Source of the DNA: Methanomassiliicoccales archaeon
Lineage (GTDB): Archaea; Thermoplasmatota; Thermoplasmata; Methanomassiliicoccales; UBA472
DNA: 64,000 bases
Assembly: GCA_028682895.1 (NCBI GenBank)
Contig: JAJRAK010000057.1
Location: forward strand, 60,516 to 124,515
Direction of reading: 5' to 3'
The position numbers and the translations under genes are program-made. Under the pieces are notes generated by a model that worked only from the letters and a program-made list of their open reading frames with translations, did not search any database and was not told where the DNA came from. Below, in pieces: positions 35,467-42,405 of the stretch (its first letter is position 1; each line of letters begins with the position of its first letter).

Positions 35467-36204
35467 CTATGCTATCATCCTTACCGCGAACCTATCATCG
35501 CGGGCGGTTAGATCGAGAGCTTCTTCACTGGTCAGATGTGATTTCGCCACGTTCTTGAGATGCTTACGACATGCCTTGACCACTGCCGTCATCTGTTCGT
35601 CCGTGGGGCGGGAATAAGTCTGCCCTGGAACTGGGATGTACCCCATGATGTGGAATGGGATGTTGACGTCTATGCTTGCTATCCACTCGGCCAGCGACTC
35701 GATCTGATCTGTGTCCACATATCCTGGGATGTAGACGATGTTGGCCTTCATCCTCATGCCGGAACATACCGCTGCCTCGAAATTCTGATAGATCAGTTCC
35801 TTTGGCCTTCCAGTGTAGTCCAGGTGCACCTGTTCGTCCCAAGCCTTGATGCCGACGTTCGCGCCATCGAGATTAGGAATGGGCAATTGACTGCCGTTGG
35901 TATGCCCCAGGAAGGTCGCGGCGCCAATCTCGTTCTTAATGAACTCGAGCATCTCAGGCAGTTCCTTTGAGCAGGTCGGTTCTCCTCCCATGAAATATAC
36001 CGTATCGACCGACACGGACTGAAGTGCCTTCTTCATCTCAGGTACGGTCAAGAACCGCTTGGGTTTGGGATATGACAGTCCCGGGGTCCCATTCGCACCA
36101 CTGCGCAGTTTGTAGCTACATATGGCACAACGGAAAGTGCAGCCATAGTTGTGAAGCGTAGCAAAACGATATTTTTCGTTGTATGTGATGCTGTGGAATG
36201 ACAT
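35467..36204 (-). CDS. Radical SAM protein (activase-like, PflA/QueE-type)
   Basis: CTFRCAIC (CxxxCxxC) and FMGGEPT are radical SAM activase-like motifs. Confidence 0.65.
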   Translation of the reverse strand: MSFHSITYNEKYRFATLHNYGCTFRCAICSYKLRSGANGTPGLSYPKPKRFLTVPEMKKALQSVSVDTVYFMGGEPTCSKELPEMLEFIKNEIGAATFLGHTNGSQLPIPNLDGANVGIKAWDEQVHLDYTGRPKELIYQNFEAAVCSGMRMKANIVYIPGYVDTDQIESLAEWIASIDVNIPFHIMGYIPVPGQTYSRPTDEQMTAVVKACRKHLKNVAKSHLTSEEALDLTARDDRFAVRMIA

Positions 36205-37550: not shown

Positions 37551-38405
37551 TCAGACCTGATGTATGATGATCAGGCGCCAAGTGATCCCGTGGGAGCCTA
37601 CGGTCGTCCAGTAGCACTCCTTGTCCACTACCGTATCATCGCCGAGGCTGATCAGATAGGAGTATGTGCCGTGACCGGTAGACTCGTTGACCAGTCTCCG
37701 ACCGATATCCTGGACCTCTGGATAGTCCACATAATCGGTGATGAGGTTCATTCCGATCTGTGCTGTGTCCGTATCATAGATATCGGTCCCGTCCAGTTGA
37801 GCACAGAAGAATGCGAACTCAGTTCCCTCCAGGAGATGAGGGAGCGTCCCGTTCATCAGCGCTGATGCGGAGAACAAAGCGCTGACAGCGCCGATGAACT
37901 GGCCATCTGCGTCGAAGACCGGGGCAGCGAACACCGCGCCTGTCTCGCCCTCGGTCGATGAGAACACCTCGCTCATGACCGGCATCTTTGTCGTAAGCAG
38001 CTTGACGACGGTCTCCTGCGCGCTCAGGTTCGTCCCTTCCAGGGATCTGCACGCCTCTGGTTCCGCGGCCATCACCATACCGTTGATGTCATAGGTGATG
38101 ATGTCCAGGATGTACGCGTTGGACTCGAGCGCTGCGATGAGCTTCGCCCTTACTTGAGTACCGTTCAGACCCAGGGTCGAGATGTTCATGCTGACGTTCG
38201 ATACGAGGGCGTCGACCTTCTTGATCTGGCCTTGCACGGCCATCTGCGCCTTGCTGAGGACCTCGTTCATCTGCAGTCGCGTCGAGGCGGACGATCCATC
38301 CTGGTCGAGCCGTGCGTTATCCGAATAGAGCAATACGGAGACCGTGGCCGAGACGAGGAGAAGGACGAGCAGCAGAGCGATAGGTCGGTCGAGGCGCATC
38401 TTCAT
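37551..38405 (-). CDS. Membrane-anchored extracellular sensor-domain protein (Cache/PDC-like)
   Basis: N-terminal TM (IALLLVLLLVSATVSVLL) followed by about 250 aa of extracytoplasmic sequence with Cache-like features. No output domain. Confidence 0.4.
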   Translation of the reverse strand: MKMRLDRPIALLLVLLLVSATVSVLLYSDNARLDQDGSSASTRLQMNEVLSKAQMAVQGQIKKVDALVSNVSMNISTLGLNGTQVRAKLIAALESNAYILDIITYDINGMVMAAEPEACRSLEGTNLSAQETVVKLLTTKMPVMSEVFSSTEGETGAVFAAPVFDADGQFIGAVSALFSASALMNGTLPHLLEGTEFAFFCAQLDGTDIYDTDTAQIGMNLITDYVDYPEVQDIGRRLVNESTGHGTYSYLISLGDDTVVDKECYWTTVGSHGITWRLIIIHQV

Positions 38406-38545
38406 GGCGGCCGGATGGGCCGAAAAGGTATTCAATATTAATGCCTGGATGGCCGACCGTTGGGTTATTCCCGAGGTCGTATGTATGTAGAATCAAAGTG
38501 TGGCAATCGTAACATAACCTTTTTCAGCGAAATTGACGATGCCCT

Positions 38546-39919
38546 TTGCCAGGTTCCCTACCAATGACCTCGATCATAGATATGCTGGTCGTCCTGACAG
38601 AGATGATCTGCGTCATCATTGTTGTCGCTTATGTCGTGACCCGCACCGAGTTCTTTCATGATGCCTTGAAAGGTAAGGTCACTTGGAAGGGCGCCTATTT
38701 CATGATCATCCTCTTCGGCCTGCTCTCGATATTCGGCACTTATTCCGGCCTGGACATCCTCGGTGCGAAGGTGAACGTGCGCGACATCGGACCGATGATC
38801 GCGGGCCTGATCGGAGGACCGATCGTCGGACTGGGCGCCGGGCTCATCGGGGGATTGCACCGGCTCAGCATGGGAGGCATCACGGCTGTGCCATGCTCCA
38901 TCTCCACCGTGCTCGCTGGCCTGTTCGGCGGGATGATATATCTCAGCGCTCACCGTCGCTTCGTCGGCATAAAGGGGGCGGTGATATTCGCCGTGCTCAT
39001 GGAATCGCTCCATATGATCATCAACCTGATCCTGGTGCAGCCCTGGTCGACCGCCTGGTCGATCATAAGCAACGTGGCGCTCCCAATGATCTTCGCCAAC
39101 GCCCTGGGCATGGCCGCCTTTTCGTTCATCGTGTGGAACCACATCCATGAGGAGGAGACGAAGGATGACAGGGACCGTCTGAACGGTGAACTGCAACGGG
39201 AGAAGGCGGAGCTGGAGATGGCCAAGGAGATCCAGCAGAGCATTTTGCCCAAGCATCTGCCTGAATGGGGCGGCTACTCGATAGCCGCCATGAGCCGCCC
39301 GGCGCGGGAGGTCGGGGGCGATTTCTACGACATGTTCCCGATGCAGAACGGGGAACGCACCGTTATCATCGCCGATGTGTCCGGGAAGGGCATGCCGGCG
39401 GCACTGTACATGGCCGTGTCCCGCACGGTCATGCGTGTGGCGGCGGCCTCCACCACCGACATAGGCGAGCTGCTGAGCAAGGCCAATGTTGAGCTGGTGA
39501 ACCAGTCGGACATGGGCATGTTCGTCACCATGTTCGGCATAGAGCTGAACGATGAGGGCGATATCGATTTCGCCAACGCCGGGCATAATCCCCCGATGCG
39601 CGTCGGTCCGTCGGGGGTCAGCTTCCTGCCCGAGGGCGGCGTGGCCATGGGCATCACGCCCGAAGCCGTCCCCTTAGCAGGGAGCATCAGGCTGGATGTC
39701 GGAGAGATGATGATACTCTACACGGACGGCGTGACCGATGCTGTTGGACCGAACGGGAAGGAACTGGGCGAGGAAGGTTTCAGATCGGCCGTCGTTGGTC
39801 TTTCAGGAATGAACGCCAATGACGCCCTGCAGCGGTTGATCGAAGCGATCGATAAGCATACTGGTACGGAACCTCAGTACGATGATATCACCATAGTGAT
39901 CGTCAGGAGGGAGGCGTGA
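38546..39919 (+). CDS. 5TM-LytS-type membrane sensor fused to PP2C/SpoIIE-family serine phosphatase (RsbU-like)
   Basis: Five N-terminal TM helices. C-terminal GGDFYDMFPM...IADVSGKGMPAALYM...GHNPPM...YTDGVTDA are SpoIIE/PP2C motifs. Confidence 0.8.
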   Translation: MPGSLPMTSIIDMLVVLTEMICVIIVVAYVVTRTEFFHDALKGKVTWKGAYFMIILFGLLSIFGTYSGLDILGAKVNVRDIGPMIAGLIGGPIVGLGAGLIGGLHRLSMGGITAVPCSISTVLAGLFGGMIYLSAHRRFVGIKGAVIFAVLMESLHMIINLILVQPWSTAWSIISNVALPMIFANALGMAAFSFIVWNHIHEEETKDDRDRLNGELQREKAELEMAKEIQQSILPKHLPEWGGYSIAAMSRPAREVGGDFYDMFPMQNGERTVIIADVSGKGMPAALYMAVSRTVMRVAAASTTDIGELLSKANVELVNQSDMGMFVTMFGIELNDEGDIDFANAGHNPPMRVGPSGVSFLPEGGVAMGITPEAVPLAGSIRLDVGEMMILYTDGVTDAVGPNGKELGEEGFRSAVVGLSGMNANDALQRLIEAIDKHTGTEPQYDDITIVIVRREA

Positions 39920-39922
39920 GAG

Positions 39923-40360
39923 ATGCCTTCCTGTGAGATCAGATGCACCACCCTGCCCTCGTCCATACCGGAGGTCCATGATCGTATAGACCGGTACCTG
40001 GCGACCATGGACGTTGATGAAGGTCTTTCATCTGACCTGCACGTCGTCATTGACGAGCTGGCATCGAACATTGAGAAGTACGCCTATGATGGGCGCCCTG
40101 GCATCTACACCGTCCGGATAAGAAGGACGGAATTGTGCCTGGAGATCGAGCTTGAGGATGAAGGGAAGGAGTTCGATCCCACCGGCGTGGAAGAGACACC
40201 TGTCACAGGTGATGTTGACCGTCCTATCGGTCATCTAGGCATCCTGCTGGTCAAGAGGATCGCCAACGGTCTGAGCTATTCCAGGCATGACGGCATCAAT
40301 GTCACCGCTGTCGTCATGAGGATCCCGTACAAGAACAACATACATGAGGGAGATCGATGA
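39923..40360 (+). CDS. Anti-sigma-factor-type serine kinase (RsbW/SpoIIAB-like HATPase_c_2)
   Basis: VIDELASNIEKYAY (N-box) and ELEDEGKEFDP; 145 aa. Confidence 0.75.
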   Translation: MPSCEIRCTTLPSSIPEVHDRIDRYLATMDVDEGLSSDLHVVIDELASNIEKYAYDGRPGIYTVRIRRTELCLEIELEDEGKEFDPTGVEETPVTGDVDRPIGHLGILLVKRIANGLSYSRHDGINVTAVVMRIPYKNNIHEGDR

Positions 40361-40471
40361 TTTCAGCGAACATCGTCCGGAGGGATTAACATCCAGGTCA
40401 AGAACGTTAAGGAAGACAATGTCATAGTTTTAGAACCGGAGGGGAGGATAGACTCCTCGTCGGTCGGTGTC

Positions 40472-40738
40472 ATGGACGATGCGTTCCGTCAGGCGTTCTC
40501 CGATGGAGCGCTGTCCTTGCTGGTGGACATGAGCAGGGTCGAGTACATCAGCAGCGGTGGCCTGCGCAGCTTCCTTCTGGGCTTCAAAGAGATAAAGAAG
40601 AAGGAGGGAAAGATGGTCCTTTGCGCACTGAGCCCCAGCGTCAGCAAGGTGTTCAAGCTCTCCGGGTTCAACACCATCTTCGACATCGTACCAGGCCGAG
40701 AGGATGCCTTGGTCAAATTGCGCCTGGGCTCGCCATGA
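40472..40738 (+). CDS. STAS-domain anti-sigma-factor antagonist (RsbV/SpoIIAA-like); annotated ATG start probably too short
   Basis: YISSGGLRSFLLGFKEIKKKEGKMVLCAL is the STAS core including the conserved Ser in the SSG motif. The reading frame continues upstream to the TGA stop of rsbW and encodes the missing first beta strands (INIQVKNVKEDNVIVLEPEGRID). Confidence 0.7.
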   Translation: MDDAFRQAFSDGALSLLVDMSRVEYISSGGLRSFLLGFKEIKKKEGKMVLCALSPSVSKVFKLSGFNTIFDIVPGREDALVKLRLGSP

Positions 40739-42405
40739 AGGACCATGCTTGGTACGATGTGCCTGGCGCTCCAGGCGTGAGGATATTTCCGTTCATCCGC
40801 AAGCCTGACGTGGTCTGCTGCAATTCGTATATCATCAAGGCCCCTGGCCACATCATGGTCATCGACCCGGGTGCGGACCAGACGCAGATGGAGGAGATAT
40901 TGAGGATGCTCCGAGATCTGTCCGGGGATGGGATGGAACGTGTGACGTTCTTCCTGACGCATTGTCATGTCGATCACTGCTATGCTCTGATGAAGGGCAT
41001 CGGAACGTCGATGATGCCAGATGGAGTGATCATGCTGGCGCAGGCCGAGGGCGCTAAAGCATTGCGGGAATATGATGAGGATGTCACCCAGGCACGGGTG
41101 ATGGGCTGGGACTTCCCTCCGGTCGAACTGCAGGTCGAGCTACGGTCCCTGCTGACCGGAGACATGCCGGACGAAGGCAAGGTCGTCCAGTCCACGCAGA
41201 TGCAGGAGATGGGCACCGCAGAAGGGATGAAGATAGGTTATCAGAGGATACCCCTTGGAGAGGGGCTGGAGATGGTAGCGTATCATACGCCAGGACATTC
41301 CCCGGACAGCGTCTGTTATCGATTGGGGCGGCTCATGTTCACCGGTGACCTGCTCTTCGCCACCGACCCTGGGATAATGGGCTCCGTCGGTTGGGACCGG
41401 GATGCCATGGAATCGTCGATACGCAACGCGTCCTGGCTGCTCGAGCATGAAGGGATAGAACTGTGCCTACCGGGCCATGGATATTGCGTTGAGACCGCCA
41501 AGGCCAGAACGATGCTGGAACGAATGCTGAAGGAGGTCCGCAATATTGGCGCTATCAAGACCAAGGACGCGGAGCGCATCCGTTTCACCTCCAACTACGC
41601 CCTGGACATGCTGGAGGAGGCGAACGAGAACTTCAGTGTCATCGCCGGGCGGCTCTATTATCTGGCATATCACCTTGAGGACCTGGAGGAAGGCAGCGAG
41701 GCGCGCAAGTACCTGGACATGCTGGAGCATGACCGGATCGACGAGATGCTGACCTCGTTCAATCGCTTCGTCGAGGAGTTCCACGCCGGCAGAAAGCTGC
41801 AGCTCCAGGTCACCATGAAGGCGGTGCAGACGATGAACAGCATCAACGCCATCTTCAAAGGGAGCGACCTGGAGGCGGTGATGGACCGTTCGCTGATCTC
41901 TGGAACGTCAAGATTGCTCAAGGACTTCATGAACGCGGTGAAGGGCATAGAGCTTGACGTCGTTCACGAGGAACGCGACCTCCGGTCATTGGTGCAGGAG
42001 ATCGTGGAGGACCAGACGGCCCGGCCGGAGGACGACATAATGGATTGCCTGGATGACCCGGAACGATACGCATCGGCCCTGGCCCGCCGGATCGCCCATA
42101 TCCCTGTCTTCGATGATATCGAGCTGCACCTGGAAGGCGACGGTGCAACGACGATGCTGGACCCCAAGCGCTTCCAGGACTCGCTGTCCGGTCTGTTCTT
42201 GGACCTGGCGGGCTCGGACGTGAAGAAGATCGTGCTTCGCCTGGATGGAACATCTTTGGAGATCGGGACGGACGTCGATCTGTCATCGACCGTTGGGGAA
42301 AAGAAGGTCCGCGCGCTCTCACGCCGGTTCGAGCTGGCCGGAGCAAAGCTATCGGTCATCGATGGTGCCCACTGGCACTGCAGGATAGAATGCGACCGTC
42401 CTTGA
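40735..42405 (+). CDS. Metallo-beta-lactamase-fold protein with about 300-aa C-terminal extension
   Basis: THCHVDHCYA is the HxHxDH motif. Start MKDHAWYD overlaps the STAS stop (ATGA). The C-terminal region has a weakly kinase-like pattern (LFLDLAG...). Confidence 0.6.
   Translation: MKDHAWYDVPGAPGVRIFPFIRKPDVVCCNSYIIKAPGHIMVIDPGADQTQMEEILRMLRDLSGDGMERVTFFLTHCHVDHCYALMKGIGTSMMPDGVIMLAQAEGAKALREYDEDVTQARVMGWDFPPVELQVELRSLLTGDMPDEGKVVQSTQMQEMGTAEGMKIGYQRIPLGEGLEMVAYHTPGHSPDSVCYRLGRLMFTGDLLFATDPGIMGSVGWDRDAMESSIRNASWLLEHEGIELCLPGHGYCVETAKARTMLERMLKEVRNIGAIKTKDAERIRFTSNYALDMLEEANENFSVIAGRLYYLAYHLEDLEEGSEARKYLDMLEHDRIDEMLTSFNRFVEEFHAGRKLQLQVTMKAVQTMNSINAIFKGSDLEAVMDRSLISGTSRLLKDFMNAVKGIELDVVHEERDLRSLVQEIVEDQTARPEDDIMDCLDDPERYASALARRIAHIPVFDDIELHLEGDGATTMLDPKRFQDSLSGLFLDLAGSDVKKIVLRLDGTSLEIGTDVDLSSTVGEKKVRALSRRFELAGAKLSVIDGAHWHCRIECDRP

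Follow-up and report, generated by a model that had tools for sequence, protein, structure and literature searches.

The partner-switching gene cluster described here occupies positions 37551–42405 of a 64,000-nucleotide stretch of DNA from a Methanomassiliicoccales archaeon (GenBank assembly GCA_028682895.1, contig JAJRAK010000057.1, positions 60,516 to 124,515 of the forward strand; the whole stretch is referred to below as the window). It appears to be a sigma-independent operon with an enzyme as its effector: the STAS protein of the switch would act directly on a hydrolase of the metallo-beta-lactamase (MBL) fold, a reading given a probability of about one half on the basis of sequence comparison. 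Four genes on the plus strand, encoding in this order a 5TMR-LYT–PP2C phosphatase, an RsbW-like serine kinase, the STAS protein and the MBL protein, are accompanied by a gene for a Cache-type sensor on the minus strand. A direct switch is proposed because the gene linkage centres on STAS, because STAS–MBL pairs occur without a local kinase, because a conserved domain of the MBL protein is shaped like a kinase yet non-catalytic, and because there are bacterial precedents for the control of enzymes by such modules. To our knowledge, three things have not been described so far: the conserved coupling of partner switching to a fusion of an MBL domain with a pseudo-histidine kinase, the occurrence of the cassette in Methanomassiliicoccales and Methanotrichales, and a mini-ORF junction ahead of the STAS gene. 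The triad of kinase, phosphatase and STAS protein is in itself an ordinary member of the partner-switching group. No paper linking STAS and MBL proteins was found in the literature.

Linkage of the STAS and MBL genes

For the analysis of gene linkage, 171 fetched loci were searched in six frames with iterated profiles, which gave 63 non-redundant full-length loci of the family of the window's MBL protein and 104 control loci with an MBL domain only. A STAS gene was located at most 700 bp away in 28 of the 63 full-length family loci, in 25 of these 28 directly upstream and on the same strand. The kinase and the phosphatase were each found in 25 family loci and any partner-switching gene in 36, compared to only 3 of the 104 controls, one of which turned out to be a truncated family member. 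The earlier note on this DNA, made from the sequence alone, had taken the MBL protein for the likely regulated output or target of the module; a linkage so far beyond chance (a STAS gene in 28/63 loci against any partner-switching gene in 3/104) upholds the association, while its direction, output rather than input, is what we infer from the pattern described next.

The linked loci belonged to Methanomassiliicoccales, Methanomicrobiales (Methanoregula, Methanomicrobiaceae), Methanotrichales and one Firmicute (Formimonas). The order phosphatase, kinase, STAS, MBL was kept in nine Methanomassiliicoccales loci, the flanks of which were unrelated. In Methanotrichales the kinase, STAS and phosphatase genes were divergent from the MBL gene, and in several Methanomicrobiales loci (L022, L026, L096) the kinase and phosphatase were divergent from a STAS–MBL pair. 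Pairs devoid of a local kinase or phosphatase were present as well (Formimonas L003, L023, L097). The phosphatases adjacent to the pair differed by lineage in their sensor domains (5TMR-LYT, multiple PAS, or CHASE4-HAMP-PAS with a fused kinase), while STAS and MBL remained constant. Variable inputs around a constant STAS–MBL part are what one would expect of an MBL protein that acts as the effector.

The MBL protein: an intact hydrolase domain with a pseudo-kinase tail

The MBL gene starts at ATG 40735, the listed ORF (40621–42405) being too long, and Pfam covered only residues 29–217 of its 556-aa product. The description as an MBL-fold protein in the earlier note was correct as far as the Lactamase_B domain goes and incomplete in that it missed a C-terminal pseudo-histidine-kinase module of 290 aa. 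In 42 full-length homologues the protein was conserved over its entire length and the metal ligands H76, H78, D80 and H81 (HxHxDH), H188, D205 and H248 were invariant. The AlphaFold2 (AF2) model (pLDDT 83.9) had the alpha-beta/beta-alpha sandwich of the fold, the nearest solved structure being S. aureus GloB (7l0b; Foldseek target TM-score 0.77, E 2.6e-10), with 7ev5, 2zwr and 2xf4 also among the nearest solved relatives. The best matches in sequence and structure to residues 1–267, namely GloB, E. coli YcbL (2xf4) and T. thermophilus TTHA1623 (2zwr), have identical metal-ligand motifs. However, they are stand-alone enzymes of ~200 aa, whereas the window protein is longer by an insert of 45 residues and a signalling tail of 290. 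The substrate could not be transferred from GloB, because the scores against the GloB equivalogs were far below cutoff (TIGR03413, 24 bits against 200; PRK10241, 22 against 421).

In the C-terminal module of ~290 aa, a helical part of the dimerisation type is followed by a CA-like domain with the Bergerat fold. Of the 60 top matches of the module, 57 were histidine kinases or related GHKL kinases, and the DHp-CA cores of ZraS, HprS, DivL and HK853 aligned to it over 160–164 residues. The homologue alignment contained no His in the module that was invariant or at least 90% conserved and no conserved Asn or Gly boxes, and where the ATP lid would be expected, between the strand pair and the last helix, there are only 9 residues; the module is a pseudo-kinase. 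It was detected by no Pfam model, HATPase included, and no PDB entry pairs an MBL domain with such a pseudo-kinase module. An origin as a diverged RsbW paralogue was considered and dropped, the hhalign probability against RsbW-like kinases being 0.5%. The profile of the module, searched against 1.84 billion proteins, recovered just 286 cluster representatives. The length of nearly all of these was 530–590 residues, with the module at ~270–570. A metagenome scan with the single protein gave no match; the scan with a profile did, with no close Methanomassiliicoccales relatives among its matches.

The STAS protein and its irregular start

The STAS protein aligned end to end with SpoIIAA (1auz), whereby Ser57 (counted from codon 40385), the second serine of the motif YISSGGLR, fell on the phospho-Ser58. 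A serine matching SpoIIAA Ser58 was present in all 29 MBL-adjacent STAS proteins, with the motif YISSGGLR in 25 of them, YISSAGLR or YMSSAGLR in 3 and YVNSSALR in the Firmicute. In the kinase, the N-box E..N, the DEG..FD box and the G.LG box aligned with the N, G1 and G2 boxes of B. subtilis RsbW (6m36). Judged by these motifs, both components of the switch look functional. The matches of the kinase to the NCBIfam RsbW equivalog models were far below cutoff, and it is therefore regarded as a member of the wider family and not as an RsbW orthologue.

The earlier note had recognised the STAS domain and had missed that the full domain lacks a canonical start. No ATG, GTG or TTG is present in the STAS frame between the upstream stop and 40472. 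Translated from 40385, the frame matched positions 2–105 of 108 of TIGR00377 with 69 bits (cutoff 53) and also aligned with the N-terminus of the STAS protein of Methanomassiliicoccus luminyensis. Translated from the first canonical start, ATG 40472, it gives 88 aa with the first two strands missing, and the Pfam match is confined to profile positions 41–106.

The same junction, with a mini-ORF of 9–13 codons between the kinase and STAS genes, was found in 7 of 7 genomes (the window, L006, L171, L173, L172, L088 and L090), whose MBL proteins were 68–91% identical to that of the window where both sequences were compared. The mini-ORF begins at the kinase stop, either overlapping or abutting it; next comes GGAGG or GGGGG, the position of the mini-ORF stop is fixed, and the STAS frame is +1 to the mini-ORF. 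The first canonical in-frame STAS start at or after the junction varies (codon index 12, 15, 15, 17, 15, 30 and 37). Over the six codons past the junction, 36 of the pairwise differences in the STAS frame were synonymous and 40 were non-synonymous (5/74 and 8/76 for the remaining two frames), from which it follows that this stretch is translated. By the same comparison, the STAS frame upstream of the GTG of the nearest relative is under purifying selection in the seven genomes. A frameshifted pseudogene, a recent lesion or an assembly error was rejected, since seven independent assemblies share the arrangement and selection acts on the frame.

In 6 of 7 relatives the junction falls on AUU, and all seven have an AUH codon 7 nt past the GGAGG. 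The case for ATT 40385 as the universal start was weakened by the AGT of L172 at this position; two codons further on, AUH is common to 7/7. Two options for the STAS start are suggested by the sequences: re-initiation or Shine-Dalgarno-guided initiation on a near-cognate AUU, AUC or AUA, or else a shift into the +1 frame where the mini-ORF stops. At the junction of L088 the sequence, TGG GGG TAT TGA G, resembles the frameshift site of E. coli prfB.

Proposed mechanism and alternatives

STAS proteins bind kinase-shaped partners. In the proposed direct switch, the membrane phosphatase (5TMR-LYT–PP2C) would sense a membrane or envelope-derived signal and dephosphorylate Ser57 of the STAS protein, while the small GHKL kinase would put the phosphate back. 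Depending on its phospho-state, the STAS protein would leave the kinase and dock on the pseudo-histidine-kinase tail of the co-translated MBL protein, and docking would either activate or silence the intact di-metal hydrolase domain. The substrate of the latter is likely to be a small molecule of the thioester or ester type.

Several observations weigh against this reading. About half of the family loci, most of the bacterial ones included, had no partner-switching gene nearby, so that the enzyme does not strictly need STAS; the Methanoculleus clade and most bacterial family members had no adjacent STAS gene. The binding of STAS to the tail, as to a GHKL kinase, is suggested by analogy of fold, the hhalign probability against RsbW-like kinases being the 0.5% given above. 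The combination of a variable N-terminal domain with a C-terminal kinase-like module, as well as the fusions of this module to two 5TMR-LYT domains, resembles sensor kinases and would fit the MBL protein as an input. Finally, the full-length STAS protein of the window has no canonical start, which makes its expression level uncertain.

The best surviving alternative, although considerably less probable than direct switching, follows anti-sigma logic: the kinase would hold the MBL-pseudokinase and inhibit or activate it, while the unphosphorylated STAS protein would sequester the kinase and never touch the MBL protein. This is the textbook mechanism of RsbW and SpoIIAB, the kinase has all of the RsbW-type motifs, and its gene, found in 25 family loci, directly precedes STAS–MBL in every Methanomassiliicoccales locus. 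However, the tightest and widest linkage is that of STAS with MBL and not of the kinase with MBL. The kinase is missing from the pairs L003, L023 and L097, and in Methanomicrobiales it is encoded on the opposite strand with STAS still upstream of MBL.

Slightly less probable again is the reverse direction of signalling, in which the hydrolase would sense or process a small molecule and the tail would signal to STAS or to the phosphatase, while the true output would be encoded at another place in the genome or would be STAS itself, acting on a target not linked to the locus. Sensor kinases likewise have a variable N-terminal domain ahead of a DHp-CA-like module; three proteins without an MBL domain have the module fused to two 5TMR-LYT domains, one of them with RsbW and STAS genes ~5 kb off; and a hydrolase serves as input in the case of B. 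subtilis, where RsbQ acts on RsbP. Such a role is at odds with the phosphatases, which already bear varied sensors of their own while MBL and STAS form the constant part, with the flanks, which differ in every lineage and offer no other conserved output candidate, and with the module itself, which has no kinase residues to act on STAS.

That the genes are neighbours with no functional coupling, or that STAS is decaying with its start lost and the module non-functional here, would agree with the GTT in the window at the place of the GTG called as the STAS start in the nearest relative and with the half of the family loci devoid of partner-switching genes, but is very improbable in view of an adjacency far above controls in three archaeal orders and one bacterium with unrelated flanks, of the purifying selection upstream of that GTG in seven genomes, and of the mini-ORF junction in 7/7, which makes the missing canonical start a shared feature and not a recent lesion.

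A broader formulation of the direct switch is put forward more tentatively than the operon-level reading itself. According to it, the MBL-pseudokinase may be a direct and conserved target of archaeal partner switching in three methanogen-related orders, in which a STAS protein toggled by the PP2C phosphatase and the GHKL kinase binds the degenerate histidine-kinase module and gates the metallo-hydrolase; in addition, STAS synthesis in one Methanomassiliicoccales clade may need non-canonical decoding (AUH re-initiation or a +1 frameshift).

Comparison with known systems

The modules RsbU/RsbV/RsbW-sigmaB and SpoIIE/SpoIIAA/SpoIIAB-sigmaF of B. subtilis share with the window cassette a PPM/PP2C phosphatase, a small GHKL serine kinase, a single-domain STAS protein with the phospho-serine at the same position, and the arrangement of tightly coupled genes in one operon. 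In contrast to them, the cassette has no sigma factor and an enzyme as its fourth gene, its phosphatase carries 5TMR-LYT where RsbU has its N-domain and SpoIIE its membrane region, and its kinase remains far below the RsbW equivalog cutoffs. Control of an enzyme, as proposed here, is known from the sigma-independent P. aeruginosa systems SiaABCD and HsbR/HsbA/HsbD and from HenR/All4160 of Anabaena, likewise sigma-independent. There a small switch protein or a STAS domain is phosphorylated and dephosphorylated by a kinase and a phosphatase, and its state directly governs the enzyme. SiaC activates SiaD, which makes this a partner-switching module that controls an enzyme directly (PMC8457831), and the Anabaena glycosyltransferase All4160 is controlled via phosphorylation of its own STAS domain (PMC13555669). 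The window phosphatase had a weak NCBIfam match to SiaA (7.7e-11). The enzymes of these bacterial systems are diguanylate cyclases or a glycosyltransferase, while the candidate considered here is an MBL hydrolase with a pseudo-histidine-kinase tail, found in methanogen lineages. DivL and RetS are pseudo-histidine kinases that serve as protein-binding modules; they have no detectable sequence relation to the window tail, in which, unlike in DivL and RetS, the ATP lid is deleted rather than mutated and the module is fused to an MBL hydrolase.

Partner-switching genes have been noted in Methanomicrobiales and Methanobrevibacter genomes (PMC2686161, PMC2812497). Those of Methanomicrobiales, homologues of SpoIIAA, SpoIIAB and SpoIIE (Anderson et al., 2009; PMC2686161), are of the same kind as the genes described here, which were also found in Methanomassiliicoccales and Methanotrichales and together with a conserved candidate target. 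It was remarked in 2009 that the targets of these methanogen genes could not be deduced, since archaea have no sigma factors (PMC2686161), in agreement with the earlier note, which had called archaeal outputs essentially uncharacterised; SpoIIAA/AB/E-type genes go unmentioned in the text of a 2016 review devoted to protein phosphorylation in archaea. If the direct switch is correct, the output would be post-translational and independent of transcription, which would answer the 2009 question on "anti-sigma" modules in the absence of sigma factors. Enzyme-output partner switching would thereby extend to archaea and to a new class of effector, and would point to a regulated step of small-molecule hydrolysis in methanogen physiology. 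The comparative evidence names one concrete, conserved and rare candidate partner together with a proposed docking module, the pseudo-kinase tail, and the question of archaeal anti-sigma-type targets is now testable with four proteins of the cultured M. luminyensis.

Gene layout and archaeal setting

Domains were called by Pfam and NCBIfam profile searches, and all five domain assignments of the earlier note were recovered above curated thresholds in the places where it had read them (Table 1). The spacing of the four same-strand genes was likewise as it had described, with 3 nt between the phosphatase and kinase genes and an ATGA overlap joining the STAS and MBL genes. A terminator scan gave no terminator-like site on the plus strand within the cluster, the promoter scan was of the sigma-70 type and thus uninformative for an archaeon, and no RNA family of Rfam was matched in the window. 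The absence of an obvious sigma factor, pointed out in the same note, held for the annotated genes within ~5 kb on either side, none of which had a sigma-factor domain, and is in line with the absence of sigma factors from archaea (PMC2686161).

The MBL protein of the window was 100% identical to a protein of a metagenome-assembled genome (MAG) named 'Methanomassiliicoccales archaeon' at NCBI, and Methanomassiliicoccales is an order of Thermoplasmata, Archaea. In the cultured M. luminyensis the same four genes adjoin those of rpS9 and RNA polymerase subunit N, so that the archaeal origin is no artefact of binning. The reading in the earlier note of a full partner-switching set of phosphatase, kinase and STAS protein in an archaeon is supported.

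Table 1. Positions of the genes, domains and other features of the partner-switching cluster (window coordinates unless a locus is named).
Feature	Position	Strand	Evidence and remarks
Cache-type sensor, membrane-anchored, extracytoplasmic	37551..38435	-	PF22309 1.6e-29; dCache_1 (PF02743) 1.7e-13
Divergent intergenic region	38436..38563	.	Alignment with L006: conserved flanks, variable centre
Membrane sensor phosphatase	38546..39919	+	5TMR-LYT PF07694 9.7e-47 (aa 35-198); PPM/PP2C SpoIIE-family PF07228 1.1e-38 (aa 272-455)
RsbW/SpoIIAB-type GHKL serine kinase, 145 aa	39923..40360	+	HATPase_c_2 PF13581 2.6e-15
10-codon mini-ORF, MISANIVRRD*	40357..40389	+	ATG overlaps kinase stop (ATGA); stop on first STAS-domain codon, right after GGAGG
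Mini-ORF junction loci	window 40357-40405; L006 7623-7672; L171 749-800; L173 698-750; L172 151-215; L088 5626-5675; L090 5626-5680
STAS anti-sigma-antagonist-type protein	40385..40738	+	PF01740 5.2e-12; 117 codons from ATT 40385
MBL protein, 556 aa	40735..42405	+	Lactamase_B PF00753 6.5e-15
MBL-fold hydrolase domain, aa 1-267	40735..41535	+	Glyoxalase-II/YcbL-like; all metal ligands; disordered insert aa 129-153
DHp-like helical part, aa 279-403	41569..41943	+	Best-conserved motif of the family, IAGRLYYL..LE.LEE; no conserved His
CA-like (Bergerat-fold) pseudo-kinase domain, aa 412-554	41968..42396	+	No conserved N-box Asn, G1/G2 boxes or ATP lid

Sensor side

The PF07228 match of the phosphatase spans profile positions 6–191 of 192. 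Its start is probably ATG 38564, giving 451 aa, the length at which the gene is called in independent assemblies. A block of ~75 nt abutting the phosphatase start (38495–38563) hardly differed between the window and L006, in contrast to the diverged middle of the intergenic region; an A/T-rich block was present beside the Cache start. Judged by this conservation, the ~75-nt block may serve as a promoter or as an element of the 5' leader.

The Cache protein has 294 aa if started from TTG, the start at ATG 38405 (284 aa) being more likely, with a single N-terminal hydrophobic segment (judged by eye) and no Pfam domain besides Cache. The earlier note had counted this sensor as a part of the module, for which the support is weak: apart from the window, only L006/L007 have its gene next to the operon, and it is absent from M. 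luminyensis, L002, L088, L089, L090 and every other family locus. A role as a conserved member of the system was therefore rejected, the gene being kept only in the closest relative; within this lineage alone, the protein may provide input to the 5TMR-LYT domain.

Other observations in the family loci

Several architectures related to the cassette were encountered in the fetched loci. Three proteins of ~1,150 aa (P0113, P0134, P0146) contain two 5TMR-LYT domains fused to the pseudo-kinase module and no MBL domain; at L174 6001–9477, RsbW-like and STAS genes are located ~5.4 kb downstream of such a fusion and genes for a PP2C phosphatase and a Hanks-type kinase upstream. In two Methanotrichaceae loci (L013 4743–7805 and L101 1748–4795, both on the minus strand), CHASE4, HAMP, PAS, PP2C and the RsbW-like kinase are combined in one polypeptide of ~1,020 aa, the gene of which is followed by two STAS genes and is divergent from the MBL-pseudokinase gene. 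A protein of ~460 aa, composed of an N-terminal STAS domain and ~330 residues with no Pfam match (L096 1325–2719, L020 5698–7077; similar ORFs in L030, L099, L104, L106, L109 and L110), adjoins the kinase gene in Methanoregula-type loci, which thus have two STAS proteins.

A gene for a Na+/sulfate-type permease (DASS, PF00939) precedes the MBL-pseudokinase gene at a distance of 0.2–2.4 kb, in the same orientation, in 9 of 67 family loci, against 0 of ~104 controls, in the Methanoculleus clade and one Methanoregulaceae locus (L009 5789–7300, L023 6271–7812; also L008, L010, L011, L012, L024, L091 and L093). This may hint at the substrate of the hydrolase, or may reflect lineage synteny only.

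Upstream of the cluster, the window contains a radical-SAM gene (35467–36204, minus strand) between the Band_7 and Fe-ADH genes. Only ~300 nt separate these two genes in L006, the closest relative, which amounts to a gene-sized indel between nearly identical neighbourhoods.

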